From an uncultured virus (IMG/VR IMGVR_UViG_3300020472_000011) (taxonomy: Duplodnaviria > Heunggongvirae > Uroviricota > Caudoviricetes): DNA of 54,051 bases. The DNA is taken from positions 62,001 through 116,051 of the IMG/VR virus record IMGVR_UViG_3300020472_000011. The stretch is one strand, 5' to 3'. Under the pieces are notes generated by a model. That model made no database searches, was not told the origin of the DNA, and saw only the letters and a program-made list of their open reading frames with translations. Every line of letters begins with the position of its first letter. The stretch's first letter is position 1. The position numbers and the translations under genes were made by a program. Positions 1,022-53,700 of the stretch are shown piece by piece.

Positions 1022-1051
1022 TGCAACCAGTCTCTAATAACGGTGGGTAAA

Positions 1052-2812: not shown

Positions 2813-2853
2813 AGCACTGGTCTCTAAATGTTAAATTAAGACTAAATCCGAGT

Positions 2854-25826: not shown

Positions 25827-26242
25827 CCAATGCTCCTCGATGATGATTTGTTACTGTTGCAGTCTCCATTTAATATTGATTTACGTCCATGACATAGTTT
25901 ACAGTATGTCTTGACATTACTAGGAACATTATTATGATGATCACCATCTAAATGGTCTAGGTCAAGACTAGTCTCAAATCCTACAAATGTGGATACAGGA
26001 CATGTCCATCCTAGATGACCATCGTTGTTTTCGCAATAGTTCTTTTTATGTCTTGTAACATTAGGTCTATCAACTCCTTTCTTACGTGCAGTGGCACAAC
26101 TAGAACATTCTGATTTGAATGACCAGTACTTCCACTCTCTTACCTGTACATTATTATTACAACCATCATTGACACATGTAGGGAGTGTGTGTCCTTCAGA
26201 AAAGAATCTTGCTTTTTGTTGTTGTGATACTGTAGAAGGCAT
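25823..26242 (-). CDS. HNH endonuclease-like protein with Cys pairs
   Basis: LDLDHLDGDHHNNVPSNVKTYCKLCH motif; N-terminal CxxxxC and CxxC. Confidence 0.8.
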   Translation of the reverse strand: MPSTVSQQQKARFFSEGHTLPTCVNDGCNNNVQVREWKYWSFKSECSSCATARKKGVDRPNVTRHKKNYCENNDGHLGWTCPVSTFVGFETSLDLDHLDGDHHNNVPSNVKTYCKLCHGRKSILNGDCNSNKSSSRSIG

Positions 26243-26261
26243 CGTTTAAAATATAATGGGG

Positions 26262-26466
26262 TGTTGAGAGAAACGTGGGGCAATGATCTAGGTTTCACCC
26301 AGTTGCCCAAATTTACCCTATGGGAATCGCTTACACCTGAACCCCCACCACTTTCAACCATCTGTCATGTGCAGTAATAGGTTTCTACCAACGGTCATGT
26401 GTCTGCTTCTAAGTCAGACTAGTCAGTAGGTTTGGGGCATAGGAACCACATCAGTTCCTCTCAACA
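26262..26466 (-). ncRNA. Candidate ~205-nt structured non-coding RNA
   Basis: 13-bp terminal stem UGUUGAGAGGAAC/GUUUCUCUCAACA, several internal hairpins, TATACT immediately upstream. Confidence 0.6.
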
Positions 26467-26469
26467 TTC

Positions 26470-27629: not shown

Positions 27630-27955
27630 ACTATATCACCGTATGTATCTACGACATACGCATTTATGAAATGATCTGAGTCAGGACAGTCCTCCTCTTT
27701 GGGGAACCAAGCAGCAGCATTCACTGTTGCAGCGTCCTCAGTCTCAAACCTGATTGTAGTATACACGCCCTGTTTCATTATGTCAAGTGCATACTCATCA
27801 ATGAATTCTTCGTACCATGTATTGACAGTTGCTTTCTTAGTCGCATCAAGAGCATTATACTTACCAAGATCAAAGTACACCAAGTGACATTGATTCCTAT
27901 TGGCATAGTACTCCATCAAATCAAATTGTGATAGTTCGTTGCCTTGTATAATCAT
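27596..27955 (-). CDS. Hypothetical protein in the tail-fibre operon
   Basis: 119 aa, ATGA coupled. Confidence 0.75.
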   Translation of the reverse strand: MIIQGNELSQFDLMEYYANRNQCHLVYFDLGKYNALDATKKATVNTWYEEFIDEYALDIMKQGVYTTIRFETEDAATVNAAAWFPKEEDCPDSDHFINAYVVDTYGDIVWQNIPRGNQS

Positions 27956-28824
27956 GATTCTAGTGCGTCATTCGCTTCTTTAATAATTTTCTCTAAGAAT
28001 GCCTTATTATCATCGAGATTTGGATTCATATTAGTATTCCCTTTCTCCTCCATAGTCTTGAATGCCTCATACTGTGTCAATAGGTCATTAAAATAAGTGG
28101 CATCTGTCTCTGACTTAAGTGTCAAGAAATATGCTATCTTATCTTTAAACTTCTTAAGACGATGCTTACCCATCTCAATGAATTGACCAGCAGTTGCAAG
28201 ATAATCTTCAGTTGGGAAGTCTACCTTGTATATTTTATTGTAAAACTCAGGAGCAATGGGAAACTTAGTATTCTCAGTGTCTGTACTAAACTCAGTAGAC
28301 TCAGTTAGTTCTCTTAGTTTAGTTCTATACAATGTATACTGTGCTTTAGTATCAGCATCAATTGGTGCGTCAGGCAACTGTGTCCAGTCTGTTTCATCTA
28401 AGAGGAAATTTCTTGCTAGTCTTACACTTAATGGTGTTACTGCTTTCTGCTTAGAATACATTCTAGAGAGTTCTTCATTGAACTCAACATTCTCAAGTGC
28501 ATCAACTACATAGAATCCATCAATCAATTTATCTTTAAGATCACTTGCTTCAGAAGCACCAACTGCTTCCATTTCATAGTCAACCCATGAATATGTGTTA
28601 GTCTTAAAGTCTTTTACATACTTCCTACGTTTAGCAACGTATGAGTCGTTAGTAAAATACTGAAACGTGATAAGTTTATCCTTGTCACTATCCCATAAAG
28701 GATATAACAATGGAGTGAGCGTATCCTTCCAATATGATTCAGGAATAGTCTTTGGTGTACCGTTGTACTCAATCTCCTGATTGATTACATCTAACTGTAC
28801 TTGCAGTACTGGTGCATCTGCCAT
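27952..28824 (-). CDS. Tail fibre assembly chaperone-like protein
   Basis: RLARNFLLDETDWTQLPDAP...YRTKLREL...FP motif; follows the fibre genes. Confidence 0.75.
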   Translation of the reverse strand: MADAPVLQVQLDVINQEIEYNGTPKTIPESYWKDTLTPLLYPLWDSDKDKLITFQYFTNDSYVAKRRKYVKDFKTNTYSWVDYEMEAVGASEASDLKDKLIDGFYVVDALENVEFNEELSRMYSKQKAVTPLSVRLARNFLLDETDWTQLPDAPIDADTKAQYTLYRTKLRELTESTEFSTDTENTKFPIAPEFYNKIYKVDFPTEDYLATAGQFIEMGKHRLKKFKDKIAYFLTLKSETDATYFNDLLTQYEAFKTMEEKGNTNMNPNLDDNKAFLEKIIKEANDALES

Positions 28825-28846
28825 TGTATTATTAGTATCTCCGTAG

Positions 28847-28853
28847 TATTTAG
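28847..28853 (-). promoter_or_regulatory. Late promoter (CTAAATA)
   Basis: tatttag overlapping the upstream stop, 23 nt before the ATG at 28824. Confidence 0.6.
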
Positions 28854-31800
28854 AAAGCTTTGATCAAGTACTTGCATAATGTGTATGGTGTAAGCAATGG
28901 AACATCTATATCAGGGTCAATGGTGGCCTGTGGTTCTATCTTAGTAGTTGATTTTAATGTCAACGTTGCTTCAGATGGTGATGCACCAGAACTATATGTA
29001 ATACCTGGTCCAGTCTCACCTTGAATAGTATATGATAGTGAATCAACAGCAGGTTTACTGATCTTACCAGCAGTAGCAACAAATACAAGACCTGTTACCT
29101 TCTCATTCCAATAAATGAATTCACATATACCATAATGGTCACTGTCTGCATCATTATCATTAGCAGCACTAGGTGTAGCACGTGGTTGTTCAATCTTTAT
29201 CTTAGTACCAACTGCTTTAGCATCTGTTGGTAATGCTACTGAATAAGTATACCATTTAGTATCACCACTACCACCATCCCAAGATGTACCTACTATAGGA
29301 ACATCACCAATGATAGGATCAGTTCTAACTGAGTTTGGTGTGATAATAGTATCAATCAATGTCCATCCAGTTGAATCAGCTGCCTGAAAATATACACGCA
29401 ACACTTCTTCTGGTACATTACCACCATTAACACCATTACCTCTACATGCTTTGATTGAGAAGTAATTTGTGTTGGTAGTATCAACTGGTTTCAATTCAAT
29501 GAATCTTGTGCCAGTTGAACCACTGAGACCACCAAACTTGACATAGTTGGTATATACCTGTGAACTATTAGCAGCAAGGAATAATGCATCAACATTTTCT
29601 GCTTGTGTATCAATGGTGGATGTGACCTTAGTTTTTCCACCAGCACCATTCATAACATAAACGTATGGTATCTCTGTATATCCAGCACCAGAAGAATCTA
29701 AACTGACTGCTGTTACTTTACTATTTGCTACAGTTACTGATGCTTGAGCAGCAGTGGTAGCACCACCACCAACAATATAAACATCTGGTACTTGTGTGGT
29801 TGGTAGTTTGAAATCACCAGCAGCACCTGTACCACCACCATTACCAACAATATTTACATCCCATACTGTTGATGTTTGTGATCCAGATGTAATGATATCA
29901 CCTTCTGATATACCTGTTGATCCACCAGTATATCCAACAATCTTACCTAATCCAATTTTAGCGTATCCACTTTCAGCACTACTTGTAGTACCAGTGGTTT
30001 GTCCACCTGGATTTATACCTAAACCTGCACCACCAACTGTTACTGATATAGATCCAGGATTGTTTAACCAAGTCCAATCAATATCACCAGCCCAGAGAGC
30101 ACCGCCACCGCCACCACCTCCTCCAGAGGTCCAGTAGTCATTATTATATACAGCAGTTATATTAGCCCAACCATTACCATTATTAGTTCCACCATAATCA
30201 TTTGAATGACTAAATGAATTGAGAGTGAAGTAATCAGTACGATAGGAACTAACTCCTGATTGTCCTGAACCACCACCTTGGTGTCCTCCGTCTCCACCAG
30301 GAGCACCTCCAGGACCACCTGATGCACCACCGTTTCCTATACCACCAAATGTAATACCGTTTCTGGCGACTCCTGAGCCACCGCCACCGCCTCCACCACC
30401 GATACATCCGTAGTGTCCACCTGTACCACCGCCACCTGGACCAAGTGCCTGTGTTGTGCCGTCTGGTTGAGAATATCCTGATGGTGGTCCTGATCCATTC
30501 ACACCAGCACCTCCGTCATATCCAGATGCACCAGCACCACCACCTCCTCCAGCACCAATTAATATTTGTGTACCTCTCTTAATCATAGAGGATCCACCTC
30601 CACCTCCACCATCTGCTTCTTGGTGTCCTTCACCACCATATCCACCATTACCACCAGCAGTTGAACTACCATTCATTCTACCACCAGCAGCAGTACCACG
30701 TACAAATGACCATCCACCTGCATAGAATCCTTCTAACTCATCTGACACCATATCAACAACAATGGTTGCACCATTATATCCTGTGTAACCACCACGACCA
30801 GCAGCTCCACCTTTACCTCCATTAAGAGTTATTTGTACTGATGTTGGATTTGCTACAGCTCCTGTGTTAAATGAACCATCTGATGTAAGAGTTTCAGTAT
30901 ATGTACCACTCTGTCCACCTTGTAATAGGTTTATACCAGCAGTACCAGCACCATATCCATTACCATTTCCAGCACCACCAGCACCACCACCGTCAGGATT
31001 ATCTGGGTAGTCTACTAATGGGAAACCATCTGGAGTTTGACCATTACCACCAGTACCACCTGTCTGACCATCAAAACTACCAGTAGCATAGATAGCAGCA
31101 CTTCCAGATTCAGCTGCTGTTCCTCCTATACCACCAGCTCCCCCTATTTGACCATTAGAAGCTCCACCTTTCGCTCCACCTTCAGCAGTTAATGTCAACA
31201 CACTACCAACTGTCATTACAGTGTCACCACCATCATTACCTTGAACATTACCAGCAGCACCTGATCCTCCACCACCTACAAGTTCATAGATCAGTTTGTC
31301 AGGTGTACCAGTTATATTTCCTAAGTTTATGGAGTATGATCCAGCTGAGGTAAATTCCCACTCATCTGAATAATCATACACAGGAGTACCACCAGTATTA
31401 ACTGCTCTACCACCAATCTGTGATGATCCAGTGAATATACTCATGGTTGGATCTGGTATATAAGTTTGAAACTCATATGTACCAGCGTCAGAAGCACCTG
31501 ATGCCATGTAGAATTGTTCAGTAGAAGCTACAGTTGGATCTTTAAGTGATCCACAACCACCAGCACCACCAACTGCATCAAATACATCATAGGTAGCAAT
31601 AGTATTATCTGTAATAGGATTTCTTAACAGTCCATGCTTGTGTGTGAATACAATACCACCAGTAGGATACCATCTACTTAATCTACCTCTACCTTCACGA
31701 TAGTCTTGGAGATATCTATCACCTGATGATTCTGCTTGATAGATATTAAATCCTGGTTGTGCATGATACACTGAATGATTATGTTGGAACACACCAGAGA

Positions 31801-32668
31801 TTTTAGTCTCTCTCATAGATATCTCAACCTGTTGCTGTCCTATCATTGAACACTCAACAGTCTCAACAACATTCTCATATCCAGTAGTAACTATTCTACC
31901 AAGTGAAAAGAATTCATCTTGTTGTTCCTTAGCAAGATACCATGCACCACCTGTAGTACCAACACCAAGTTGTGAGTTACCTATGTTAGGTGAGTTCTGA
32001 CCAAATACAGGACCATTACCAACTACTTTCTTAGTAACCATATCAGGTACACAGAATGTTCCTAAGTATGGGTCACCCCACATGTCCAATACATTAACAG
32101 TAGTGATGCCTAGTATTGAACCTTCTTCATCTAATCTTACAGCAAATGATGCACCACTTCCACCACCACCACTCAATGTTAATGTTGGTGCTGATGTGTA
32201 TCCCTTACCAGCAAGAAGAACATTAATCTGTTTTATTTTACCTGCTTCAACAATAGCCTGACATGTTGCTGTTACTCCACCAGCAGGAGGAGCAGAAATT
32301 GTTATTGAAGGAGCAGATGTGTAACCTGATCCACCATCAACTACATCAATGCCACTACTAGATCTACCACCATACTTATTACCAAGTATTTCAAATAAAC
32401 TTGGAAAATCACTTATATTATACTCAGAACCATCACAATAAAGATAACCATGATGTGTATATGCAGGGTCATCACCTAATAGATATGCATCACCAGCAGA
32501 TTCTGTTAATATTGGGAATGCTGTAGCACCATACTTAACAAAACTATGGTCGAATGAATTCTGACCAGTTTTTAAATTGGGTACAATAGCACCCACTGGT
32601 GTAGTATCTACGGTAAGATCTGTGTAGAATCCTTGTCTAGGATTTCTATATGCTTGAGAGACGGTCAT
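28850..32668 (-). CDS. Tail fibre protein with tail-collar domain and glycine-rich region
   Basis: PVGAIV...GYLYCDGSEYNISDFPSLFEILG collar motif, long Gly runs, HxH motifs, C-terminal YLIKAF. Confidence 0.8.
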   Translation of the reverse strand: MTVSQAYRNPRQGFYTDLTVDTTPVGAIVPNLKTGQNSFDHSFVKYGATAFPILTESAGDAYLLGDDPAYTHHGYLYCDGSEYNISDFPSLFEILGNKYGGRSSSGIDVVDGGSGYTSAPSITISAPPAGGVTATCQAIVEAGKIKQINVLLAGKGYTSAPTLTLSGGGGSGASFAVRLDEEGSILGITTVNVLDMWGDPYLGTFCVPDMVTKKVVGNGPVFGQNSPNIGNSQLGVGTTGGAWYLAKEQQDEFFSLGRIVTTGYENVVETVECSMIGQQQVEISMRETKISGVFQHNHSVYHAQPGFNIYQAESSGDRYLQDYREGRGRLSRWYPTGGIVFTHKHGLLRNPITDNTIATYDVFDAVGGAGGCGSLKDPTVASTEQFYMASGASDAGTYEFQTYIPDPTMSIFTGSSQIGGRAVNTGGTPVYDYSDEWEFTSAGSYSINLGNITGTPDKLIYELVGGGGSGAAGNVQGNDGGDTVMTVGSVLTLTAEGGAKGGASNGQIGGAGGIGGTAAESGSAAIYATGSFDGQTGGTGGNGQTPDGFPLVDYPDNPDGGGAGGAGNGNGYGAGTAGINLLQGGQSGTYTETLTSDGSFNTGAVANPTSVQITLNGGKGGAAGRGGYTGYNGATIVVDMVSDELEGFYAGGWSFVRGTAAGGRMNGSSTAGGNGGYGGEGHQEADGGGGGGSSMIKRGTQILIGAGGGGGAGASGYDGGAGVNGSGPPSGYSQPDGTTQALGPGGGGTGGHYGCIGGGGGGGGSGVARNGITFGGIGNGGASGGPGGAPGGDGGHQGGGSGQSGVSSYRTDYFTLNSFSHSNDYGGTNNGNGWANITAVYNNDYWTSGGGGGGGGALWAGDIDWTWLNNPGSISVTVGGAGLGINPGGQTTGTTSSAESGYAKIGLGKIVGYTGGSTGISEGDIITSGSQTSTVWDVNIVGNGGGTGAAGDFKLPTTQVPDVYIVGGGATTAAQASVTVANSKVTAVSLDSSGAGYTEIPYVYVMNGAGGKTKVTSTIDTQAENVDALFLAANSSQVYTNYVKFGGLSGSTGTRFIELKPVDTTNTNYFSIKACRGNGVNGGNVPEEVLRVYFQAADSTGWTLIDTIITPNSVRTDPIIGDVPIVGTSWDGGSGDTKWYTYSVALPTDAKAVGTKIKIEQPRATPSAANDNDADSDHYGICEFIYWNEKVTGLVFVATAGKISKPAVDSLSYTIQGETGPGITYSSGASPSEATLTLKSTTKIEPQATIDPDIDVPLLTPYTLCKYLIKAF

Positions 32669-34041
32669 ATCTTAATTAGGTATTCCATGATAATAAATGG
32701 AGAACATGCAGAATCAATTGATACTGATGAATCTTCTCCTATGGTCATGGTAGTTTGTAGGTTTTCTGGTGGAATAACAATAGCATTTGTCTTCACCTTA
32801 TAATTATGATCACCTTTTTCTATATCAATACGATGGTTATGTATTGTTGGGTCAGCAGTTTGAGATAACTCATCTGTTTCTGTTACTACATTATCAACGT
32901 CTGGTGTACAGCGAGATTCAGTAACAGCATCATTTGATTGCAATGGAACTACATCATATAAACTATTACCAGCAAAATCTATAGGAACACCTTGAGCACC
33001 CTGAACATATGTTGGTTGAACAGTTATCATTGATCCTGTTGCAGCAGCACCACCACCTGAGAAGCATCCAATCAAAGGAATGATCCAACTATTCTTATAC
33101 TTTGCAGTATTAGATCCATCAGCAGAACCTCCTATTGTACTTCTATCAAGTAGAGGTCCAGTCAATACTCTATCAAGTAGACAATGATATTTGAATGAAT
33201 TGATTGCTTGAGAATCTGGAGGGAAAATACAACCACCATAATATATGGTTGCAGTTAATGGTGAGTTCTGTGTTCCAGCAACACCATTTCTCCATGCATC
33301 TATTGCAAGACAAGGTTGTGATCCTGATCCTGGATACCCAGTACTATTTGTAGTACCCTCAACCCAATCACTAATAGGAATAGTTGAAGCATTTCTCCTA
33401 CCAGTTTGTCCTGCTGTTAAAGGATTTTGACTATTAGTTTCTGTAGTAGTCAACAATCTAGATCTTACACCAGAGTGGAAATGTGCATGTGGATGGATAG
33501 AATTCTCTTCTACACCTTCAGAATCTGTACGATGTGTGTCACCAGCATATGACCAAGATGGTTTACCACGAACAGGAATCTCTTGACTTGGTACTGAAAT
33601 AGATCCACTATAATCTATTCTAACTGTAGTACCAATTGCTGATACTGCTTCAATACCAATACCTGAACGACTTATCTCATTACCCAGAGCATTATCTAAT
33701 CTTATATTATTATATAAACCTGCGTTAGCACCTGAAGTTGGTTCAGGATACTTAGAACCAAGATCAGGAACCATGAATTGATCATCTTGTAGTGTATCAA
33801 ATGGTGTGCCATCAGCATTATTTCTAATGAACTTACATGCTGTACCTACACCACAAATAGCAGCAAGTTGTGGATAATCATCTGCATAATATTTCGTGCC
33901 ATCACACTTTAGATATCCAGCAGGTAAATTTTTTATATTAACAGAAGTATCTGGTGTACCATTATATTCTACTGGCCACACAATTACTTGACCTGTCAAC
34001 TGACCATACTTTGCTCTTTCTTTAGCGTAAAATGTTGTCAT
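32665..34041 (-). CDS. Tail-collar domain short fibre protein
   Basis: PAGYLKCDG...YPQLAAI...FMVPDL, HPHAHFH, C-terminal PFIIMEYLIKI. Confidence 0.8.
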   Translation of the reverse strand: MTTFYAKERAKYGQLTGQVIVWPVEYNGTPDTSVNIKNLPAGYLKCDGTKYYADDYPQLAAICGVGTACKFIRNNADGTPFDTLQDDQFMVPDLGSKYPEPTSGANAGLYNNIRLDNALGNEISRSGIGIEAVSAIGTTVRIDYSGSISVPSQEIPVRGKPSWSYAGDTHRTDSEGVEENSIHPHAHFHSGVRSRLLTTTETNSQNPLTAGQTGRRNASTIPISDWVEGTTNSTGYPGSGSQPCLAIDAWRNGVAGTQNSPLTATIYYGGCIFPPDSQAINSFKYHCLLDRVLTGPLLDRSTIGGSADGSNTAKYKNSWIIPLIGCFSGGGAAATGSMITVQPTYVQGAQGVPIDFAGNSLYDVVPLQSNDAVTESRCTPDVDNVVTETDELSQTADPTIHNHRIDIEKGDHNYKVKTNAIVIPPENLQTTMTIGEDSSVSIDSACSPFIIMEYLIKI

Positions 34042-35702
34042 TAGAATGCCTTGATTATGAATGTCATCGTTAATGAAGGTTGTGTAATGTCACATGAAAT
34101 ATTTAGAGCATTTTCTAAACTTTGTGCCTGTAATGCAGAACCATCTGCGTTGTCAGCAGTATGTGATGGAGGACCAGCCATTGATCCTATACCCTGAGCA
34201 ATTTCAAAACTACTATGGTTATGTGCTCTGTAAGCAGATTCAATTGGATTCTTATTTGCAGCAGATTGGTTTAATGAAGTTGGCCATGCAGCATGTCTAA
34301 ACTTAAGATCATATGTACCAGATACTAATGCAGCTGAGTTAAGAGTTATTTCCCACTGTGGTGTAGGATTAACAGAAAATTCTTCTGCTGGTTCCATTGT
34401 CTGAACATATGTACCTTCTCTTAATACATCATACTTATCATCATCAATAACTGGTGTAACATACATCAATGGAGTTATCTTATCCCACTGATTCCATGTA
34501 TCTTGTCCAGAACCATATGCTCTTCTAATATCAGTACCAGAAGGTATTATAATCTTAGCAGTACTATCTAATATACATCCAGTAACACTAAACACTGGTG
34601 CAGTTTCAGGATCGTCTACCAAACCATCAGATCTTTGTGGTGATGATGTATCATATCCAAAGAAGTTTGGTCTAGATCTAAACTCCATTGGTCTTGGGAA
34701 GTATCCAGTATGAGCTGGAACTTTATGTGTATCTACTGGTTCAACGGCTGATAGTTGATCTGTATTTCCTCTACTAAAAATTGTTTGTGCGTATGTTGTA
34801 CTACCATGTCCAGATCCTCTGTCATTGGTATTAGTACGCCAATTGTTTGCACCAGCAGGTACATGACCCCAGTAGTCTTTATTGGTACTGTCTGTTATGA
34901 ACTCTTGGAAACTATCACAACGTGGTAAAGTATATTCATGAGTTTCATCACCATAAAATGACAGTCTAGTAGCACCTTCTTGCCAGTTTGTTGGGTTTTG
35001 TTCTCTCATAGCACATGTGGTTGGTCCATCAGTAGCACACTGCATGGTAACAGAACCAGTCATTTCAATACCTTGGTCAGTCCTGAATATCTGTGGACTG
35101 TTAGGGTTCACGTTAACAGATGTAATCCTATCTGAGTGACCATGAGCAGGAGTATGATTGATACCTAACTTACGATTCAATGTGTATATTGTCTCAATAA
35201 AATCAGGAGCAAATAAAGATATATTAGTAAACTTAAAATATAAGTTACCAGATATATTAAGTGTGAAATCAATATCAGCAGTTGCTTCGTAAGTTGTAGT
35301 AACTGGATTTGTCTCACCATAATCAGCAACCAAATTACCAATTACACTTTGTGCATCATCCTGACCCATCTGATACTTTGTTTTAGTAAGATCAGAATTC
35401 TCTAAGTCAATAAGAGTTCTACTTGACAGTTGAGGTAATCTAAACGTAGCATTTTGATAACCATAATAAGGGAATTGATAATGATCTCCATTAGCATCAG
35501 TCATGTTACCACCATATGTGTCACCTAAATTTGATGCCAACAATGGATAGTCAGATGCTTGTTCAGTTTGACCTGCACATATTATCCAACCTTTAGGTAT
35601 ATTAGATGCAAGGAAACCAGTACCACCGTCACCGCCCCAAGGTAGGATAGTTCCTACCTTTGCAGTTCTCATACTTTTAATAGAATCGTAGAGTGCAGTC
35701 AT
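34041..35702 (-). CDS. Tail-collar domain short fibre protein
   Basis: VGTILPW...IPKGWIICAG...YPLLA..LGDTYGG...FRLPQL, HTPAHGH, C-terminal QPSLTMTFIIKAF. Confidence 0.8.
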   Translation of the reverse strand: MTALYDSIKSMRTAKVGTILPWGGDGGTGFLASNIPKGWIICAGQTEQASDYPLLASNLGDTYGGNMTDANGDHYQFPYYGYQNATFRLPQLSSRTLIDLENSDLTKTKYQMGQDDAQSVIGNLVADYGETNPVTTTYEATADIDFTLNISGNLYFKFTNISLFAPDFIETIYTLNRKLGINHTPAHGHSDRITSVNVNPNSPQIFRTDQGIEMTGSVTMQCATDGPTTCAMREQNPTNWQEGATRLSFYGDETHEYTLPRCDSFQEFITDSTNKDYWGHVPAGANNWRTNTNDRGSGHGSTTYAQTIFSRGNTDQLSAVEPVDTHKVPAHTGYFPRPMEFRSRPNFFGYDTSSPQRSDGLVDDPETAPVFSVTGCILDSTAKIIIPSGTDIRRAYGSGQDTWNQWDKITPLMYVTPVIDDDKYDVLREGTYVQTMEPAEEFSVNPTPQWEITLNSAALVSGTYDLKFRHAAWPTSLNQSAANKNPIESAYRAHNHSSFEIAQGIGSMAGPPSHTADNADGSALQAQSLENALNISCDITQPSLTMTFIIKAF

Positions 35703-41700: not shown

Positions 41701-44700
41701 TCGTTAGCAGGTCTCTCATCCTTAATTCTTTCGAACCAAGAATCATTTGTCTTATCAATACCATCAGCATACTCTCTAAGTCTCTTGATGATTTGATCTG
41801 TACCGTTGCTATTCTCAACCTGTAAGTACCACTTACCATATATTACTGGGTTAGTATTAGGATTAACAAACGTTGGATCAAATCTCATTGGAGACTGACG
41901 CTTGTTAGCAAATACGTTAAAGTCGTAAGTACCTGGTTGATATGTTATTGGGTTAACACCTTGCTCTGCATCACTCTTAGTCTTATGGATAGTAAAGACT
42001 TTCTCTGTTTGATACCTAGCAAAGAAGTACTTGTTACCTAACAGTCTACCTTGACTATCTGCAACAGTATTATCACTAGCATATGCTGCACCAACTAGAG
42101 GTAGAGCACCACCTTCTCTTTTTCTAAAGAATACTGTGTGTCCAGTAATGTTAGAGAATGGAACATCAAAGATGTGTGGAACATCTGTACGGATGTTTGT
42201 ATTACTTACACCATCAAGTACACAACCATATTGATGTAGATCATAGTTATCATCAAGAACAAACTGATAGATATCAATCTCTATGTCTGGATGTATATCT
42301 TCTACTTCAGCAGAGTGTAGGTAGATACCAGCAGCAGCATTCTCTTTGCTGCTTGCAAGCATAATCTTAGTCTGATCACTTCCATTGAATACAGCATTAG
42401 CAGAATAATTTTCTGGTTGTGTATTTCTTGCTGGAGCAATTACATAGTACTCTTGGTTGGTAGCAAATCCATTAGGAAGTCTAACGAAACGCTTATCAAC
42501 ATCAACATAAGAATTGGTTTGTGTATCATAACGTGGACGTGGAACCAATCTAATTGGTGTGCCTGTCTCAAGATCATGTGGATTAGCACCAACTCCTTGT
42601 GTCAAGGTAAAGACTGTTGCTCTAGATGATAATGATGTAGTTAACTGTGATGGTTGACTACGTGGTACACTACCCAATCCAGTTTGGATAATTGTGCTAA
42701 TATTAGCGAAGTACTGACGAATAGCATTTGCTTGATCAACACACTGAGGATACGTTGTATTCTGTGTGATAGTATTGTCAACTGTTCTAGTAAGAGTTGT
42801 GTATACTGCATCAGCAAACTCAAAGTGTAAGTAAGAGTTAGTGCTAGTTGCGTTAGCATTAATAGAAGGACCAAACTCTAGACCAAGAGGAACAGGGTTC
42901 CTTTCAACACTGTCAAGATAAGAAGCAGAATTGATAGTTCCAGTGATTATCTGGTAGAGAGTTGTGATTGTAGATGCAACCTGTTGACAAGCACCATTAG
43001 AAATGGTTCTTGTTACACCATCAAGAGATGTTGGTGTTTCAACTGTATCAATAACAATCTTGAATAGTGAATTAAGTGTTGATCTTACATCTTCACATGA
43101 TCCAACTGAAGGAGTTCTTGTAACTCCACCAATTACAATCTTCTCTGATGCACTGACGAAGGTATGAGTTGAGATATCAGATGATATACCAACATTAACC
43201 GTGATTGTGGTAGCAGTAGTGCCAGTAATGGTAGGATCATTGTTTGAAGCTGGGTCGGTTGAACGTGGATAAGTATGATTTGTTGCGTTGTTATCTCTCT
43301 CACATGTAAATGTTAGTGAGTTATCAACGATGTGTACACTAGTTCCATTTGTATAACTATGAGCACCAATATCAAGTGTTAACGAACCAGTTGTAGGATC
43401 ATAAGTTGATGTGGTTACTGTATGGTTTTTACCAGATAATGTACTAGGATCTGTAATAGCATCAGTTACAATCTTAGTAAGAACACCAACAGCAGATCTC
43501 ATGTCCTCACAAGGACCAACAGAATCTGTACGTGTTATACCTTGTAGTGATGTTGAATCAGATATTGTGCCAGTTAAGATAGCAACTAAAGTATCAATAG
43601 CACTCAATACAACATTACAATCTCCATTAATAACACCATTAGTAATGGTAAGATCTCTTGTCTGAGTTAATGATGTGTGACCACCAACAGTAACTTCTAC
43701 GTTAGTAGCAATCTCTTTGATGATGTCACGTACTGCATTGAATGCAAAGATAGTTTCACTTTCAGATCCAGCAGCATGAGCACCAGCAACATAAAGGTTA
43801 GCAGCATCCCATACTCTATGGTTACCACCATAACCTGTGTTATGTGCAACAACTTTAACTACATCTTTAAGATCATCTAAACAATCAGTAGAACTGTAAC
43901 CAGCTTGCCATGAATATGAAGGGAACTGAGCAATCATTCTACCCAGTGCTACCTCTGCTGCAAACTCAACGTTATCCAAGATTAGATTCTTAGCATCAGC
44001 ATGTCTGCTACTTACATGAGGAGCAACCTCACCAGTAATAGTAGTGTCCCTAACCTGTGTACGTCCATGAGAACCAAGTGTTACAATGTTCTCATTCCTA
44101 GCGATTTGAATCATCAAATCACGTGCATGATTAAGTGCTTGGGTAGTTTGTGCTTCTTCTCCAGCAACCTCTTGAACCATACCCTGTACATAGAGATCGG
44201 TCATCTCCCAAACTCTATCGTTACCACCATATGCTAGGTTGTATGAAACTTCTTCAACGAAGTCTACGATGTCATCTTTACAATCCTGTTGGTTACCTGT
44301 TGGAGGAACAAATCCAGGATGTTGTACCAACATTCTCTCGTATGCTTCATCAGCAATGAGTAGTTTGTTAGCAACAACTAAGTTACGAGCATCAGCAAAT
44401 TTATTTGATGGTGCAGGGTTAACTTCATTGAATGTAATACTCTTATCAAATACCTGTGGAAGACCATGATGTCCAGTAACAAGAATCTTCTGGTTTCTAA
44501 GTGCTTGAGCAGCCATTTCACGTGCTTGCTCAAATACATAATTGGTTTCATCTTCTTCACCAGCTACATGAGCACCAGTCTTGTATGAGTATGCTGCATC
44601 CCATGTCTTATCATTACCACCATAAGCAATGTTATCAGCAACTGCTTCAAGTAGATCAACAACATCATCAATACAATCTTGATTGTGATACTGTTGATTA

Positions 44701-47700
44701 CCAGCAACTGTGAATACTTTGTGTATGGAATTGTTTACTGCACTAACAAACTTATGGAAGTAAGAACCACCAGTTTGAATAGCACCAGCAGACGCACTCT
44801 TGAATTGGTGTGGATACTGATTAGATAGAGTAGCAACACCTACATTAACTGTAAATGTTCCAGTTTCTTTCTGAACATTACCAGCAACTGATCTTACAAA
44901 TGTATGATTAGCAGTAGGATAATGTCTGATTGAATTAGCAGTAGCACTTACAAATGTATGTGGTGATGCTGGTTCGAAATGAACAGCATTAGCAACAGAA
45001 TTTACAAATGTATGAGTATATCTCTGGTTGTAGATGATAGCATTAGCAGTTGCATTAACAAAGGTATGATCATACTGATCATTAGCAGCAGCTGCACCAA
45101 CATTAACTGTAATTGTTGTAGTTGTAGCATCCTTAATTTCTATATCACTATTGTATGCTGGATCAGTAACTCTAGGATATGAGTGGTTAGTTGCATTAGC
45201 ATCTTTAGCACACTGGAATGTTAAAGAATCAGGTGCTATCTTAATCTTCTCACCATTTTGTAGATCATGTACTCCAATAGTAAGAGTCATATCACCAGTG
45301 ATTGCATTATAAGATGCAGCAGTAGGAGTATAGTTAGTTAATTGTGAAGCACCAATATTAACTGTAACAGTTCCATTCTGTCTATGTAATCCATTAGCAA
45401 CAGCAGATACAAATGAATGTACTGACTTATCCTGAGAAATACCTACATTAACTTCAAATGTATTAGTAGTCTTATCAGCAATCTTCAACCACCTTGAACT
45501 TACAGGGTCAAATCCTGCCCGTGGATATTTTTTCTGACTTACGTTACCATCAAGGTCACATGTCAGTGTTAAAGATTCATCATCTAACTTAATATAATCA
45601 CCATTAGAGAATCCATGATTGTTAACTGTTAGTTTAAGAACACCTGTCTCAGGAGTATATTCTGCACCACTAACACTATGCATAGATGCACCAACACTAT
45701 TAACAGTGATTGATTTTTCACCTGCATATGGATCTATTCCAGGACGTGGGTAACTATGGTTAGAAGTATGATTATCCTTAGAACATGTAAAGGTTAGTGA
45801 ATTATCCTTAAGAATAATACCTGCACCTTCACGAAGACCATGCTGACCTATTGTAAGAATAAGATCACCAGTGGTTGAGTTATAGTCAGCAGCACTAGGA
45901 GTCCATGTCTGATTATCTCCAGCATTACCAACATTAACTGTAATTGTATTTGCAGTCCTAGCAATAATATCTACAGATCTTCCAGATACTCTATCACTAG
46001 CAGTCTGACGTGTGATTCCATCAGCAACACCACTTATAAATGCATGTGTGTCTGTGTTAGTAGAAGGTAAAGCTTCAAGACATTGGAACTCAAATGAATC
46101 AACACCTGTCTCTGTTACCTTAATCCATGTACCACTTACAGGATCACTAGGACGTGGATATGATTTCTCAGCAGCAGTACCTGTTGCTCCATTAAATCCA
46201 CAACTGAATGTTAGAGCACCATCAGCGATCTTAACAAAGTCACCAGTTTTTAATCCATGATTAGCAGTTGTTGTAATAGAAACAATACCTGTTGTAGGAT
46301 TATATGTTGTGCCAGTAGTTGCAGTAAGACCTTTAGATGCTGGACGTGGATAAAGTTTATTGGACTGCTCTTCATCCATCTGACACTTAAATGTCAGTGA
46401 GTTATCATCAATAGTAATACCATCACCAACTGCAAGAGAATGACTACCAATTGTTAGAGTAAGATCTCCAGTTGCAGGATCATAATTTGCTCCTGTTGGT
46501 GTAAATACATTCTCGGTTATGTCAGCAGTTACAGCACCATAATCAGCAGAAACAAATGTATGACCATAGTTACCACCACTGGTTATAGCGTCAGCAGTTG
46601 CAGAGACAAATGCATGAACAGTAGTGTTAGAAGACTTACCAACATCAAGAGTAATTGTTGTTGCTGTTACAGCTGTAATATCTACAGGTGAATCATAAGA
46701 CTTATCTTTCTTCTGAGTAATACCACCAGCGACAGCAGATACAAATGTATGATCTGTAGTGTTGGTTGAAGGTGCAGAATCTAATACTTGGATATCAAAT
46801 GTATTTGTCTGTGTATTAGAAATCTTAACCCACTTGTTACTGATAGGATCAGATGCTCTTGGGTATGTGTGGTTAGTAGCATGACTATCTTGAGCACATG
46901 TAAATGTTAGAGAATCATCTGCTAACTTAACCCAATCACCATCACGCATTCCGTGACCAGCAACAGTAACTGTAATGATACCAGTATCAGGATCATAGGC
47001 AGCCATGGTTGCTGTATGACTTTCAATTGTTGTTCTAGGATATGCATGGTTAGTAGCATTATTGTCCTGACCACATGTGAATGTGACTCCAGCATCAGCA
47101 ATCTTAACAGACTCACCAACAGTTAGGTTATGAGAACCAATGGTCAATGTCATTAAACCATTTGCAGGATCAAAAGATGCATCCGTTGGAGTGTGACTGA
47201 CTAAAGGTGAAGCACCAACATTAACTGTAACTGTTGTAGCATCAGCAGCAGTAACTACTGTACCTGTTGAGTAGATAGGATCACTAGAACGAGGATAAGT
47301 CTTAATGTCAGAAGTACCACCCATTGCACAACGGAACTTCAATGAATCCTGTGCTATAGTAATATTCTTACCAACAGGAATGTTATGATTAGGAATAGTC
47401 AATACTAACTGACCAGTTGCAGCTGTGTATGTGGCAGCAGTAGGTGTATATGTTTGAGAAGCACCAGCCTGACCAACATTAACTTTGAAAGTATTTGTTG
47501 TTGCATCAGAAATTACTAACCACTTACCATTGCTAGGATCTTTAAGTCTTGGATATGCATGCTCAGTTGCATGGTTATCCATATCACATGTAAATGTGAG
47601 TGATCCATCAGCAATTTTAATTCTATCACCATTGGTGAATCCATGATTAGCAACAGTAAGAACTAGATCACCAGTGGAAGGATTGTATGAAGCATCTGTT

Positions 47701-50700
47701 GAACTATGATAAGAAGAACCAACTGACTTAACAGGTAGAGATGATGTTCCAGCAGGATCAGTAGGTCTAGGATAAGCATGGTCTGTAGCATTATTATCTG
47801 CATTACATGAGAACTTGATAGAGTTACCAATAATTCTAACGTCTTGACCTGGTTCCAAATCATGTGATCCAACTGTGACTGTCATGTCACCAGTAGAAGG
47901 ATTGTAAGTTGCATCACTTACATCAAGATTACCTTGACCTGTAGTACCAATATTAACAGTAAACTGATTAGTAGATGCTGCTAGAACTGGTAGATCTTCC
48001 TGATATGCAGGGTCACTAATACGTGGATATGCATGTTGACTGTTGTGACCATCCATGTCACAAGTAAAGTTCAATGCACCATAGTCAATTCTTACACGAT
48101 CATTAGCCTTCTTAATACCATTTGGATTAGAAGATATGAATGTGTGTGCATAGTTTCCACCAGTAGTAATTGCATTAGGTATAGCAGATACAAATTGATG
48201 TGCAGTAGTGTTAGAAGATGTACCAACATCTAAAGTTACTGTTCCATCGTATCTTGTTAATCCATTAGCAACAGCACTTACAAATATATGTGCGTAGTTA
48301 CCACCAGAAATTAAAGCACCACTAGTAGCAGATACAAATTGATGTAGATAGTTACCACCTGTCTTAAGAGCACCTGCATCAGCAGACTTAAATGTATGAA
48401 CATATCCACCACCAGACTTAACAGCACCTGCTAGTGCAGATACGAAAGTATGTACGTCTGTAGTCTTGCTTGAAGGTCCAACATTAACTGTAATAGTATC
48501 AGCAGTAACACCAGTGATTTCTATTGCCTGATCATATGATCTGTCAACCTTAGAAGTAATACCGTTGTTGCTTCCAGTTATGAATGTATGAGCAGTAACG
48601 TTAGTAGAAGGAATGACATCCAATACTTGTACATCAAATGTAGTTCCAGTTACATTAGAAACCTTCAACCACTTACTACTTACTGGATCAGTTACACGAG
48701 GATATGTGTGGTTGGTGCTGTTATTATCCTCCATACATGTGAAGGTAAATGCACCAGTAGCAAACTGAACATAGTCACCATTCTTGATGTTATGAGCAGC
48801 AGTTGTTACACTCAATATACCTGTAGTTGGATCATATGTTGTACCAGCAGCAGCTGTGTGTGTTTCAGTAGCAGATCTAGGATAAGACTTAGCACTCTGA
48901 CTACCAGTAGAGAATCCAACGAATACTGTCATTGTTGTACCAGTGACAGAATCTAAACCTAGTGTTTCATTACGGAATGGATCACCAGCACGAGGATATG
49001 TGTGTTGTGTAGCGTTGTTATCAGCATCACAAGTGAATGTTAATGCATCCTGATCAAATGTGATTGTACTATTTGCTTTCTTAAGACCACTAGCAGTTGC
49101 AGAAACAAATGTATGTGCATAGTTTCCACCAGATGTAACACAGTCAGCAGTTGCAGAAACAAATAAGTGTGCTGTAACATTAGTAGATGGGATTGTACTT
49201 AGTACCTGAACACTAATTGTTGTAGCAGTTACATCAGTAATAGCAAATGATTTATCAGAGAATGGATCAGTTGTACGAGGATAAGTATGTGTTGTTTGAT
49301 GATTATCTTCAGCACAAGTGAATGTTAGAGAGTTATCTGCAATCTTAACAGCAGTACCAACAGTCAAACTATGAGCACCAATGGTAAGTTCCATTATACC
49401 AGTGGTAGGATTATAATTTGCACCTGTAGGTGTATGCTGTATTAATGGAGATGAACCAACATCAACTGAGAATGAATCTGTAGTAACATTAGAGATTTGT
49501 AACCACTTACCGAATGTAGGATCAGACTTACGTGGGTATGTCTTAGTAGAAACATTGCCATCCATAGCACAGTTAAGTGATATGGAACCTTCTGCAAATT
49601 TAACTCTATCACCATTACTAAATCCATGATTAGCAATGGTAACAAGCATAGTACCAGTTGCAGCATTATATGTTGCATCTGTTACTGTATGTGTAGAAGC
49701 AGCATTCAAAGCATGTGCTCCAACTTCAAGAACCAATTCACCTGTGATAGGATCGTATGTTGTTCCAGAAGCTGCTGTCAATGCTGTGCTACCATCAGCA
49801 GTAACACCACCAGCAGCACCAGTGATAAAGGTATGTGGAACATTACCATAAGTACAACTAAATGTTACACCAGCATCATCAATCTTGATTGACTCACCAA
49901 CAGTTAGACTGTGGTTTCCAATCTTCAAGGTCATCTCACCTGTTGCAGGGTTGTATGAACCATCATCAACATTGTGACTTACTATTGGAGATTGACCAAC
50001 ATTAATAGTAATAGTTGTAGCTGACGCTGCTGTAATTTCAATAGAAGTATCATTTACAGGGTCAGTAACACGAGGATAAGACTTGACACTATAGTTTCCA
50101 TCCATCTCACAAGTAAACTTGAGAGAATTAGGATCAACCTTAACACTTGTGCCAGCAGTTAAACTGTGACTACCTATAGTTAATTCCATCAATCCTGTGT
50201 TAGGATCATAGGTAGCATTAGTTGGTGTAAACTCTACAATAGGAGACTTACCAACATTAACTGTAATGTCACCACCTCTCTTAGAGATAGCATAGTTAGT
50301 TGCTCTCTTAAATGTATGAGCAGACTGTGGTAGATGCTTAACTGAATTTGTTAATGCAGATACGAATGTATGTGCTGACTGAGGCTTATATTCTACAGCA
50401 TCAGTAAGAGCAGATACAAATGTGTGAGCATATCTATTAGCAGGATCAGCATCGAAACCAACATTAATTGTTAGTGTTCCGTCTTGCTTTAAGATACCAT
50501 TAGCAGAAGCAGATACAAATGTGTGTACTGAATTATCAGTAGAAGAACCAACGTTAATGGTTAATGTATCAGTGCTTGCTGATAGGATAGGAACCCATCT
50601 GTTGCTGAGTGAATCAAAGTTGGTACGTGGATATGTCTTCTGACTTACGTTACCATCAAGTTCACATGTTAATGTAATAGAATTATCTGCTACCTGAATG

Positions 50701-53700
50701 TAATCTCCTGGTGAGAATCCATGACTAGGAACAGTAACAACCATAACACCAGTAGAAGGTGTGTATGCAACATTAGTTGCTGTATGTTGCGAAGATCCAA
50801 CTGCTGTAATAGCAATTGACTTACCAGCATAAGGGTCAGTACCAGGTCTAGGATATGAATGCTGAGTAGCACCACCATCTTTATCACAAGTAAATGTTAA
50901 TGAGTTATCTTTTAATGTAATATCAGTACCAACACGCAATCCATGCTGACCAACAGTAAGAACCATCTCACCATTGTTCTGATTGTATGTTGCACCAGTA
51001 GGAGTAAAGTCCTTATTAGTACCAGCAGTACCTACATTAATTGTAAACTTACCTGTATCAACTGATGTAATTGGAAGAGATCTTCCAGAAGCTTTATCTA
51101 AGTTTGCACGTGGATATGACTGAGCAACTTGGTTGTTGTCCATTGTGCAAGTGAATGATACAGCACCGTCATCCATGACGATTCCATCACCAACAGATAG
51201 ATTATGAGCACCAACAGTAAGTTCTAAGTCACCAGTTGCAGGGTCATATGCAGCACCAGTTGGTGTAAACTCTACGTTAGATCCAGCATCTGCAATCTGA
51301 ACTTTAAATGAATTCTGTGCTACATCATAGACAGATAACCAATCACCAGAATAAGGATCAGTTGCACGTGGATACTTATGCTCGGAAGCATTACTATCCA
51401 TGCCACATGTGAATGTTAGAGAGTTGTTGGCAATCTTAATGAGTTCTCCATTTGTCAATCCATGATTAGCAACAGTGAACTCAAGTACACCTGTAGATGG
51501 GTTGTAGTTAGCATTAGAAATATCATAGTTACCACCAACACCTATAACTTCTAACCCAGTATTATACGCAGGGTCAGTTGTACGAGGATATGTGTGGTTA
51601 GAACTATTTCCATCCATACCACATGTGAATGTTAATGCATTATCATCAAATCTAATATTCTCACCAACATCAATGTCATGGTTTCCATCAACACTAACTG
51701 TTAACTCACCACTTGCAGGATCATAAAGTGCGTTAGTAAGATCATATGTTACCGCACCAGTAGTTCCAACATGTGCTTCAAAAGTATTGTTGGTTTTGTT
51801 TGTAATAGTAACCCACTTACCACTGATAGGGTCAGACTTACGTGGATATGAATGCTCAGTAGCATTGTTATCCATTGCACAAGTAAAGACTAATGCATTG
51901 TCATCAATTCTTATCTTATCACCATTTTCAAATCCATGATTAGTAAGGGTGAATTCCATAGTACCCTTATCAGGGTTGTATCCAGCACCAGTAACTGTGT
52001 GCTTGGAACCATCTGCTACAATCTTAACAGAACTTTGATATGCTGGATCAGTTGAACGTGGATAAACATGTTGTGTGCCATAGTTATCTTGAGCACATGT
52101 AAATGTAAATGCTCCGTCTTCAACTCTTACATTCTGCCCTTCACCTAACTGGTGACCTGGAATAGTTGCAGTCAACAATCCAGTAGCAGGAACATATGCA
52201 GCAGCAGTTACATCATGTCCAATTAATAGAGACTTACCTACATCAATACTGAATGTATTTGTATCTGCCTCAGCAACTTCGACCCACTTATTACTAATAG
52301 GATCAGATGATCTAGGATATACATGAGTAGAAGCATCACCATCCATTGAACATGTCAATGTCAATGATTCATCTTCAATCTTAACCTTACTACCAGCAGC
52401 TAGACCATGACCATTAGATGTAATAGTCAACCAACCAGTTTCAGGATTATAACTTGCATCTGAAGCTGTGATAGCACTAGCAGCAGTTAATCCATGACTC
52501 TGAATATCAAGAGTCAAATCACCTGTTGCTGGATCATACTCAGCATCAGTTGGTGTATATTCAGCAGTAGAAGAACGAACCAACATTCTCTCTACAGATT
52601 CAGCAGCAATCAAATTCTTGTTAGCAAGTATTAGATTACGTGCGTCACCATTTCTGTCATTAACCACTTCAGGTGGTTCATAAGTGACAGTATTATCATA
52701 TGTTTGAGTTAGACCATGACTACCAAAGATGAATGACTTCTCATTACGCATGATCTGCACAGACATATCTCTGGCATATTCAATCGCACGAATGGTCTCT
52801 TCTTTCTTCTGTGAAATATACTGAACTGCACCACTATCATAGTGATATGCAGCATCCCATACTTCATCGTTACCACCATAAGCAGTATTCTCAGCAATTG
52901 CTTCAACGATGTCAACTAAGTCATCCCTACAATCCTGTGGACCGTATCCTGTTGGTGAAGTATAAGATGGGAAATCCAATACCATCCTATCAAATGCTTC
53001 AGCAGCAATGAATAGTTTGTTTGAAAGTAATAAGTTTCTAGCGTCACCATTACGATCAGAGATTACCTTCTTACTAGAGAATGTTGCTTTCTGTCCAAGT
53101 TCAATCTCTGTTGATGAGATAACACTCTTAACATATGTGTTATCAGGAATAACTGGAGATGCAGGACGTGTAGCACCAGCATTAAGTTTGTTGTCTGTAA
53201 ACTGAGTAGGATCATAGTCAGCAACAGTCATACCTTGTACTAGACCACTGGTATCACCGACATCAACAATAGCAGTTCCAGCAGTAGTTTCTGCTCCAGT
53301 ACGTAAGTATGTGAAGTTACGTATGGATGCAATAGCAAGATCTCTAGCGTAATCGTAACCTTCTAGAGTTTCAGTAAGTTCTGATGTAATGTATGATAAA
53401 TTGTTACCAACATAGTATGATTCACCAGCTTGGATAGTATTAATGTTACCACCAAGTCTTAAATCCTGAATAGTAGCATCAAGTAGGTATCCAATGTCAC
53501 GACGACACTTAACAATATCAATACCTTCTCTATCTAAGAGGTATGGATACTTATTAGTAATATATCCGTATGCCTCGTAAGCAATAAACTCTTTGTTTGC
53601 TTCAATAAGGTCAGCAGCATCTAGATCCTTATTGTTAATTGTAATACCAGTAGGATTAAGAATAGTTGCAGTAGCATTAAACTTCTTAAATCCATTAGGA

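Follow-up and report, generated by a model that had tools for sequence, protein, structure and literature searches.

The stretch of DNA that we analysed (the window, 54,051 nucleotides) carries one giant open reading frame (ORF), with a tail module downstream that serves as context:

35706 to beyond 54050, minus strand: giant ORF, at least 6,114 aa, with its 5' end beyond the end of the record
27952 to 35702, minus strand: downstream tail module, with three collar-domain fibre/structural genes and a tail-fibre assembly chaperone

Residue 1 of the ORF corresponds to window position 54050, and about 507 aa are absent from the N-terminus as judged by L010 and L013. The ORF is an orthologue of the cyanomyovirus 'putative short tail fibre' (T4-GC734, S-PM2p218; phrog_4527). 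It matched phrog_4527 with an E value of 0, and tblastn against cyanomyovirus orthologues gave 48-57% over 1,001 aa. Homology to the T4-GC734 family is full-length outside the inserts, and the gene order, with the giant ORF ahead of the collar-domain fibre genes, matches that of S-PM2, S-CAM4, and S-WAM2. The source virus likely infects cyanobacteria. In the Sullivan 2010 supplement, T4-GC734 bears no proteomic flag, and virion-proteomic support was also absent for T4-GC397, 643, 513, 107, and 512, which we looked up. No carrier of the unit described below was identified among the rows listed in the S-TIM4 supplement. T4-GC969, the protein of which was detected in S-SM1 virions, has one copy of the domain.

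A six-segment unit present in 26 copies

Between aa 490 and 3640 of the ORF, we found a unit made of six segments (A, D, E, G, I, and J), each present in exactly 26 copies; for segment I, four false regex matches were removed, and segment G was chosen by hand. A reading of the sequence alone had quoted the motifs of this unit and counted 26 YPR motifs against 26 HxF closers. The motifs lie where it had placed them, on the minus strand and within the single ORF, and both counts were recovered. Unit 1 breaks off at aa 525 (nt ~52478) and is taken up again 1,458 aa further on, at aa 1983 (nt ~48104); the two stacks of closers are found at aa 1867-1921 and aa 2995-3049, with closers spaced only 18 residues apart within a stack, and the unit that begins with its closer is at aa 1406. 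The unit regarded as isolated and complete is indeed uninterrupted, but it is itself an insertion, missing in the orthologue L014. In an independent HMMER search with a profile of uninterrupted units, the matches broke at the same places. An assembly artefact was rejected, since the longest exact DNA repeat within 43101-52600 is 23 bp and five independent IMG/VR contigs (92-98% identity) share the same tree.

A nested tree of 25 units

The order of the segments was then read as a set of brackets. Twenty-five units parse as a single nested tree, ten deep and six-fold branched, with one circular permutant:

44712 to 52565, minus strand: U1, the root, which encloses 24 further barrel units in the parse
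48102 to 52478, minus strand: first arm, U2-U15, 14 units in the A|D loop of U1, reaching depth 10 at U14
50274 to 51533, minus strand: subtree U6-U9, a four-unit cassette (AlphaFold pLDDT 92.9, pTM 0.83)
48900 to 49862, minus strand: U12, circularly permuted in the parse (closer first)
49125 to 49442, minus strand: U14, the deepest leaf, at level 10 among barrel units
44766 to 47933, minus strand: second arm, U16-U25, placed by the parse in the I|J loop of U1
43122 to 43430, minus strand: U26, an uninterrupted unit predicted as an FCCH/endosialidase-like barrel with a small Cys/YPR/HxF sheet (AlphaFold pLDDT 96.4)

Without a circular permutant the order cannot be parsed at all; allowing one permutant gives a single parse, and allowing two adds two more. 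The closer-first unit U12, which had been suspected of being permuted, is the permutant of this single parse; it sits within U11, separating the Cys strand from the YPR strand, and hosts both U13 and U14. None of 20,000 block shuffles parsed, nor did any of 100,000 permutations of the resuming blocks or 100,000 of the opening blocks (220,000 randomized orders in all). Inserted domains themselves host insertions (an A1-B1-C-B2-A2 pattern) down to depth 10. The insertions fall at I|J (13), G|I (5), E|G (3), A|D (2), and D|E (1), and six hosting units have two children each. Moreover, the insertion sites of U16-U17-U21-U23-U24 repeat those of U5-U6-U7-U8-U9. The pairing of U21 is ambiguous. If this unit is read as a second circular permutant, the covariation score shifts by no more than -0.3 to +3.3 in favour of that alternative, while the paralogy of U21 with U7 favours the main parse; the depth is 10 under either.

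The barrel tree interrupts the third of a series of helical repeats:

42700 to 53621, minus strand: five phycobiliprotein-like helical repeats, with openers at aa 144, 336, 469, 3220, and ~3352

Their closing helices are at aa 3478, 3514, 3652, 3688, and 3770, and window aa ~331-3728 are missing from the orthologues L026 and L082. On a long stretch, the phycobiliprotein family PF00502 scored 27.5 bits (cut-off 22.2); tested singly, two of four repeats matched, both under the cut-off, and weak phycoerythrin matches had E values of about 0.01. These nested helical domains would enclose the barrel tree, giving about 14 levels in all.

Whole subtrees have been gained or lost among the orthologues compared (L014, L026, L027, L082, S-CAM4, and S-PM2). 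U11 and U12 occur alone in L027 and L014, and L014 also holds U11-U14 without U15. Unit numbers run from 0 in S-PM2 and 2 in S-CAM4 to a maximum of 26; the tree is thus dispensable within the family, some members of which have few units or none. The U6-U9 cassette stands alone in other phage proteins and is present as six tandem copies in L059, in which the counts balance (24/24/24/24/24 for A, D, G, I, and J). The unit is also found, with different trees, in gp7, YapH-like, and small structural proteins, the gp7 of P-SSM4 carrying an 11-unit nest. Among 37 homologue strings, 27 beat every one of their shuffles (12 or 25 each), including all 18 with at least 13 units; the other 10, all of 3-11 units, did not, and only one of the 37 parsed free of corrections. 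The grammar used permits two permutations only, and S-WAM2, which needs a third, was hence mis-scored.

Predicted fold of the unit and pairing of distant closers

The natural U6-U9 nest was folded with confidence by AlphaFold. Closer placement was judged from the strand pattern and pLDDT of this model, which covers four of the 25 nested units. The stacked closers take the two-strand pattern seen for the closer of a single unit, their blocks having a pLDDT of 89-97; the pTM of 0.83 corresponds to a fixed relative orientation and does not specify shape. For an ACG-2014d protein, an independent model from BFVD superposes with 3.4 A over 320 columns. In these models, the start and the end of a unit are predicted to be adjacent, and the closer is predicted to supply both the final strand of the barrel and a strand that flanks the Cys strand. 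A child in the G|I site would continue the hairpin of its parent as two long strands, which would make a stiff joint.

The predicted barrel of the unit resembles six-stranded FCCH-like barrels, namely the UBA1 FCCH (PF16190), the endosialidase barrel (PF12195; 4hiz), and the siphovirus tail-tube FCCH (9jlf_E), with Z 7.0-7.5 and rmsd 2.3-2.9 over 74-79 residues. The FCCH and endosialidase barrels are inserted domains as well. Residues 1-101 of a single unit align to the phi92 endosialidase barrel with Z 7.5 and rmsd 2.3 (79 residues aligned), a Z that falls within the range the comparison program calls common, and to the UBA1 FCCH with Z 7.4 and rmsd 2.5-2.6 (74 aligned); other families reached at most 6.2 (VIA), all below the caution line of Z 8. 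The Atlas neighbour of the unit was E1_FCCH (0.91, 164 shared features). Neither Pfam, a PDB sequence search, nor Foldseek gave a significant family or solved relative: Foldseek found no PDB match at E<=0.001 (E 0.38), and E1_FCCH and End_beta_barrel stayed below the Pfam gathering threshold (27.6 vs 29.5 bits on a 3,850-aa stretch). Single units matched these two families weakly in 12 and 4 of 78 cases (best E 0.006 and 0.016). Fibronectin-type Foldseek matches of the four-unit model were dropped at a TM of about 0.1. The unit differs from FCCH barrels by about 25 additional residues making the Cys/YPR/HxF sheet, and by sequence matches that lie under the Pfam cut-offs. The siphovirus FCCH domain is likewise surface-exposed on a phage tail (PMC13576161), and the available text of that report does not describe self-nesting of the barrel.

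We looked for covariation between the separated parts of units. Training used 265 uninterrupted units from other phages, the window and five close orthologues having been removed, and the test covered the 12 distant closers of the window. The score of the parse was reached by 18, 17, 37, and 0 of 20,000 shuffles with 5, 10, 20, and 40 column pairs, respectively, and the last-in-first-out order ranked 1st to 3rd of 72 within-stack orders. Across homologues (41 units), 160, 60, 21, and 2 of 5,000 shuffles reached the parse. Pairing by similarity, restricted to the window, gave no significant result (305 of 5,000), and there the last-in-first-out order lay outside the top 5 of 72. Covariation can reflect contact or shared ancestry of unit subtypes. 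It agrees with the high-confidence model in pointing to one predicted domain formed from discontinuous parts, and the idea that a unit needs its distant closer is supported by this covariation and by the predicted last-strand position of the closer.

The sequence-only reading had also proposed a metal site in each domain. In the window, the Cys and the closer His are invariant (26 of 26 units each), and an Asp three residues after the Cys is present in 23; the position before YPR is a His in 17 units only, otherwise a Lys (8) or a Gln (1), which leaves the proposed metal site weakly supported. The register of covarying pairs places the Cys opposite the closer His, so the two are probably neighbours across strands. 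In 365 non-redundant units, Cys, YPR, Asp, and closer His reach 97-100% conservation, a figure that is partly built into the tokeniser, and the His before YPR is present in 59%.

A probable branched appendage and alternative readings

Starting from the observed segment order, tree, permutant, and subtree gain and loss, we consider it probable that 25 units of about 100 residues, predicted to be FCCH-like barrels and nested in the loops of their parents, make a branched multi-domain appendage of a tail-associated virion protein. Recursive in-frame insertion, as first suggested from the sequence, is supported by the unique minimal parse, the empty nulls, the covariation, and the AlphaFold nest. 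As for the branched appendage suggested with it, the tree-shaped topology follows from the parse, while we infer physical, extended branching. With units seated in the loops of their parents, the chain likely folds outward and then returns, in a branched manner. Leaves would fold first, and a parent would be completed upon return of the chain, as much as about 2,600 residues further on. The tree may have grown unit by unit, through insertions into five tolerant loops, and also by recombination that exchanged or duplicated balanced subtrees in their entirety, as only such single events preserve balanced brackets. The appendage would have two arms, the longer of about ten domains and an estimated length of roughly 30 nm, and could extend reach or valency to catch host cells or their surface filaments in dilute seawater, host capture being its presumed role.

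The nesting could be real and the units nevertheless packed, against one another and against the baseplate, into a compact decoration or spacer instead of a reaching appendage. This happens in Si3 of the cyanobacterial RNA polymerase, the seven SBHMs of which measure 150 x 50 A and lie along the enzyme surface (PMC10895346), and the pTM of the four-unit model, in fixing orientation, leaves room for such a shape. We regard it as unlikely, given that a ten-level topology forces a long root-to-leaf path and that the predicted continuity of strands across the G|I joint suggests extension. It is rather improbable that the tree is tolerated accretion, in which a readily inserted domain is carried by recombination into exposed loops of several giant virion proteins and hardly affects fitness. 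The range of 0 to 26 copies among orthologues and the different trees in gp7, YapH-like, and small structural proteins would fit it, but a 7.8 kb open frame has been maintained, the key residues are kept throughout the 365 units (with the reservation on the tokeniser given above), and the tree is identical in five independent contigs.

Closers might also complete the barrels of neighbouring chains in an oligomeric, probably trimeric, fibre, the fold being then intermolecular. Tail fibres are typically trimers (PMC12143355), and the protein is annotated as a fibre and adjoins a fibre chaperone; set against this, U6-U9 is predicted to fold as a monomer at pLDDT 93, and the 18-residue closer spacing fits the return path of a single chain, making such strand swapping very unlikely. 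Hardly credible, finally, are ordinary tandem domains that are complete without the closer, with the HxF stacks as a separate repeat. Some homologues (P0006, P0009, P0010, and P0012) do hold plain tandem units, but the closers in these strings still number about as many as the units. Displacement in last-in-first-out order also affects segments D, E, G, and I, the closer corresponds to the final strand of the barrel, and the L059 cassette counts balance.

Domain insertions mostly stop at a single level, and a 2026 survey of 2.7 million domains gives a six-level case as its extreme (PMC13114784). Like the phage tree, Si3 (in the beta' subunit, RpoC2) consists of one small beta domain inserted into itself, with discontinuous and bifurcating hosts (PMC13114784, PMC10895346). 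As described there, it comprises 8 domains on 6 levels, whereas the phage tree comprises 25 on 10 (about 14 with the outer folds). The phage tree is further set apart by its five insertion sites, by circular permutants, and by a layout that changes from one close phage to another. Fold and role differ as well, Si3 being made of sandwich-barrel hybrid motifs in RNA polymerase; membership of the Si3/HABAS (SBHM) group was ruled out for this phage tail-region protein, whose top structural matches are FCCH-type barrels. Branched tail appendages are also described for the receptor-binding systems of KP32-like phages, Ackermannviridae, and jumbo phage phiKp24; the KP32-like branches are separate proteins docked together, whereas the giant ORF encodes its branching within one chain. 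The giant cyanomyovirus proteins (S-PM2p218 and Syn1_032 of T4-GC734; the 'putative short tail fibre' of S-RSM4, S-CAM4, and S-WAM2) are orthologues, and many of the giant structural proteins of such phages, which also include gp7 of P-SSM2 and P-SSM4 and T4-GC969 of S-SM1, carry the unit. They are annotated by name only, with nesting unmentioned in their records or in the available text of Sullivan 2010 (PMC3037559), and searches of the open-licence PMC/bioRxiv literature turned up no account of a phage protein with nested domains.

With 25 copies, ten levels, branching, and a permutant, the tree exceeds the six-level extreme of the survey as reported (PMC13114784) and shows how far discontinuous folding can reach. 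It comes with a natural series of constructs (one, two, four, six times four, 11, and 25 units) suited to testing in which order units fold and how strands complement each other across 100 to 2,600 residues, some of the phages with giant structural proteins are in culture (P-SSM4, P-SSM2, and S-CAM4), and it offers a scaffold for the design of branched single-chain proteins. Linear domain annotation overlooks nested proteins by construction, and the unit partly explains why the giant structural proteins of abundant marine cyanophages, themselves uncharacterised, are bulky and variable. More tentatively, marine cyanomyoviruses may possess a recursive grammar in which a mobile barrel with adjacent ends and at least five tolerant loops, its subtrees exchanged and permuted, builds single-chain antennae of 10-14 levels; distant closers would complete the Cys/His/Asp site, and phage-specific shapes might tune host capture.

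Segment order and parsing of the nest

We cut the unit, a predicted beta-barrel of ~100 residues, into six segments: A (YdPtTG hairpin and His motif), D (ending in F-x-C), E (YPR), G (DP strand), I (TiTVNVG) and J (the HxF closer). Four false regex matches for I were discarded and G was picked by hand. All six segments were found in 26 copies between aa 490 and 3640 (residue 1 being nt 54050), and the balance of 26 YPR and 26 HxF motifs counted in the sequence-only reading was borne out. When the copies (U1 to U26) were submitted to a pushdown parser, no parse was obtained without a circular permutant, one was obtained with a single permutant, and two further ones with two. The permuted unit suspected earlier is U12, which starts with its closer and is inserted between the Cys strand and the YPR strand of U11. 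The minimal parse is a single tree of 25 units, ten levels deep and rooted in U1 (nt 44712-52565), in which six hosts carry two children. Five insertion sites are used: I|J (child between segments I and J of its parent) 13 times, G|I 5, E|G 3, A|D 2 and D|E once. Shuffling all blocks (0/20,000), resuming blocks only (0/100,000) or opening blocks only (0/100,000) gave no parsable order. A HMMER profile of 78 uninterrupted units broke off where the parse does; the halves of U1, for instance, covered profile positions 2-31 and 27-82, and the beginning of U11 covered 2-45. Exact DNA repeats in the nest region reach 23 bp at most. The bracket-like nesting proposed earlier was recovered, and we consider the nested order of the units almost certain. 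Locally, the closer at 2497 may be that of U18 or the first segment of a permuted U21. Within the window, the sites of U5-6-7-8-9 recur in U16-17-21-23-24, and the nearest matches from the first member are U6-U17, U7-U21, U8-U23 and U9-U24.

Predicted unit fold and probable pairing of distant closers

By VIA-align, a single unit (residues 1-101) matched the phi92 endosialidase barrel (Z 7.5, rmsd 2.3, 79 aligned), UBA1 FCCH (Z 7.4) and a phage FCWL1 tail protein (Z 7.0), with no match reaching Z 8; Foldseek, Pfam and Atlas gave weak pointers to the same barrel type. Since the alignment reaches the final residue of both structures, J would be the last barrel strand. The Cys/YPR/HxF sheet corresponds to ~25 residues outside this alignment. 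Every unit of the window has the Cys and the closer His, an Asp three residues past the Cys is present in 23 of the 26, and a His precedes YPR in 17 of the 26 (59% of 365 units). The metal site per domain suggested earlier agrees with the two invariant residues but not with the variable His, and it stays a rather doubtful candidate.

AlphaFold modelled the natural U6-U9 stretch (422 aa, 22 sequences) with a pLDDT of 92.9 and a pTM of 0.83, and the single unit with a pLDDT of 96.4. Each stacked closer in the U6-U9 model formed a six-residue and a three-residue strand, the two strands that also terminate the single-unit model, and two long continuous strands appeared at the G|I joint; the model is consistent with the closer pairing of the parse. 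A BFVD model of an ACG-2014d protein superposed at 3.4 A across 320 columns. Where I and J are adjacent (280 units), covariation linked the start of J, in antiparallel fashion, to the Cys strand, and the end of J to the first D strand. Several such pairs scored high in 85 units with distant closers (z 4.0-6.5 for five of the six top pairs, 0.3 for the top one), and the observed score was equalled by 160, 60, 21 and 2 of 5,000 within-protein shuffles (41 units). After training on 265 units, the window and close orthologues being left out, the parse score of the window's 12 distant closers was reached by 18, 17, 37 and 0 of 20,000 shuffles with 5, 10, 20 and 40 column pairs, and the last-in-first-out closer order ranked 3, 1, 1 and 3 of 72. 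When the window by itself was tested by BLOSUM similarity, the pairing was not significant (305 of 5,000 shuffles) and the last-in-first-out order fell outside the top five of 72. Part of the covariation signal may come from shared descent of unit subtypes.

Trees in relatives and proposed outer nesting levels

A profile search returned 748 clusters at 50% identity, and the unit itself matched ~300 phage records (294 in one search, 305 in another), every one named cyanophage or marine virus. The comparison of nesting trees among orthologues, advocated in the sequence-only reading, gave the same tree in contigs L009-L013 (92-98% identical); other trees differed, and the changes were of whole subtrees. 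U11 and U12 occur alone in L027 and L014; another L014 copy has U11-U14 without U15, and L014 is devoid of U26. Window aa ~331-3728 are cleanly missing in L026 and L082. P-SSM4 gp7 carries a nest of 11 units, S-CAM4 two units and S-PM2 none, and certain homologues have plain tandem units. Closer-first units are common among relatives. We also parsed 37 distinct token strings, several being close relatives of each other, with an error-tolerant grammar; proteins of fewer than three units, nests at most 150 aa from an open contig end and duplicates were left out. In total, 27 strings outscored every one of their own shuffles (12 or 25 per string); the 18 strings of at least 13 units are all among them, and the 10 that failed were all small. 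Only L056 parsed without correction.

A four-unit nested cassette (U6-U9) is present six times in one 5,934-aa protein (L059:5591-19336 and P0001); the outer unit of these copies has lost its YPR motif, and its closer has a conserved Arg. In L096 (S-WAM2 NC_031935, BOW91_gp224), aa 1828-2033 read G I J J A D E G I A D E, which needs a G-start permuted unit hosting a closer-first unit, a putative third barrel permutation. Two small structural proteins with common ends (L079:9662-11587, 642 aa; L087:9671-11917, 749 aa) hold 4-5 nested units within an apparent divergent related barrel; the module appears to invade unrelated hosts.

Around the barrel tree, five phycobiliprotein-like helical repeats are apparently nested (window 42700-53621, minus strand): five openers come first, then five closing helices that each start with a Cys, the third repeat is interrupted by the tree, and a split barrel lies between the first and the second. 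A conserved Cys is found in each opener (C-x-x-D) and closing helix, possibly for bilin attachment or a disulfide. Judging from motif counts and one clean deletion, the deepest unit would lie at about level 14 when outer folds are counted. The motifs S-N-S-x-F-G and H-x-F-E-Y are ~220 aa apart in small relatives (L079:6832-9663, L087:6353-9667), ~1,175 aa in L026/L082 and ~4,580 aa in the window (aa 1-30 to aa 4579, nt ~54050 to ~40316), a spacing that suggests still further outer nesting within a host domain. This domain, which we take to have a beta-helix look, had no match in Pfam.

Genomic setting, precedents and proposed role

The window makes up the last 54 kb of a linear virus record of 116 kb, which is 57% complete. 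The ORF with the nest is on the minus strand and measures at least 6,114 aa; its 5' part lies beyond the record end, and complete contigs L010 and L013 indicate ~507 extra residues in front. Next to it lie three collar-domain genes and one for a tail-fibre chaperone, and baseplate genes follow farther along. The post-nest stretch matched 454 phage records, whose labels are Synechococcus, Cyanophage, Prochlorococcus or Marine. The top matches (48-57% over 1,001 aa) were to proteins of S-CAM4, S-RSM4, S-WAM2 and S-PM2 named 'putative short tail fibre', and gene order around the ORF is shared with S-PM2, S-CAM4 and S-WAM2. Because of these matches and this gene order, the source is presumably a T4-like marine cyanophage. 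Other features were noted:

Window 2867-11428, minus strand: another giant protein, of 2,853 aa, encoded between gp6 and gp8 and containing a YHYH domain
Window 25047-27402, minus strand: N6/N4 DNA methyltransferase gene pair with one small ORF in between
G000:C1:38137-38436, minus strand, same genome outside the window: one more complete unit, within a frame of 1,369 aa
L094:7249-12076 (S-PM2 AJ630128): 16 tRNA genes annotated within the coding region of S-PM2p218, the S-PM2 orthologue of the nest-bearing ORF, probably through misplaced coordinates

Recursive insertion is already known from Si3 of cyanobacterial RNA polymerase (structure in PMC10895346), the extreme case shown in a 2026 survey, with eight domains and six levels (PMC13114784), whereas the window tree has 25 units and a depth of 10. 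In the literature searched, we found no account of recursive insertion in phage proteins.

The Sullivan 2010 supplement records no virion presence for the T4-GC734 family, to which the ORF belongs; S-SM1 T4-GC969, a virion-detected protein, has one unit. Host pili have been seen with cyanomyoviruses bound (bioRxiv 2025.09.20.677514) and host adaptation of S-TIM4 was mapped to tail and baseplate genes (PMC6224464); in neither case is a function linked to the barrel domain. The nested order, the permutant, and the gain and loss of subtrees were observed and agree with the recursive insertion proposed earlier, while the branched virion appendage is what we infer from it. Each unit is predicted to be an FCCH-like barrel whose ends are adjacent and which J closes; leaf units would fold first, and the tree may have grown by loop insertion and recombinational exchange of balanced subtrees. 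On balance, we lean towards the explanation that the nested barrel tree would form a branched appendage with two arms, which would sit on a tail-associated protein and help host capture.
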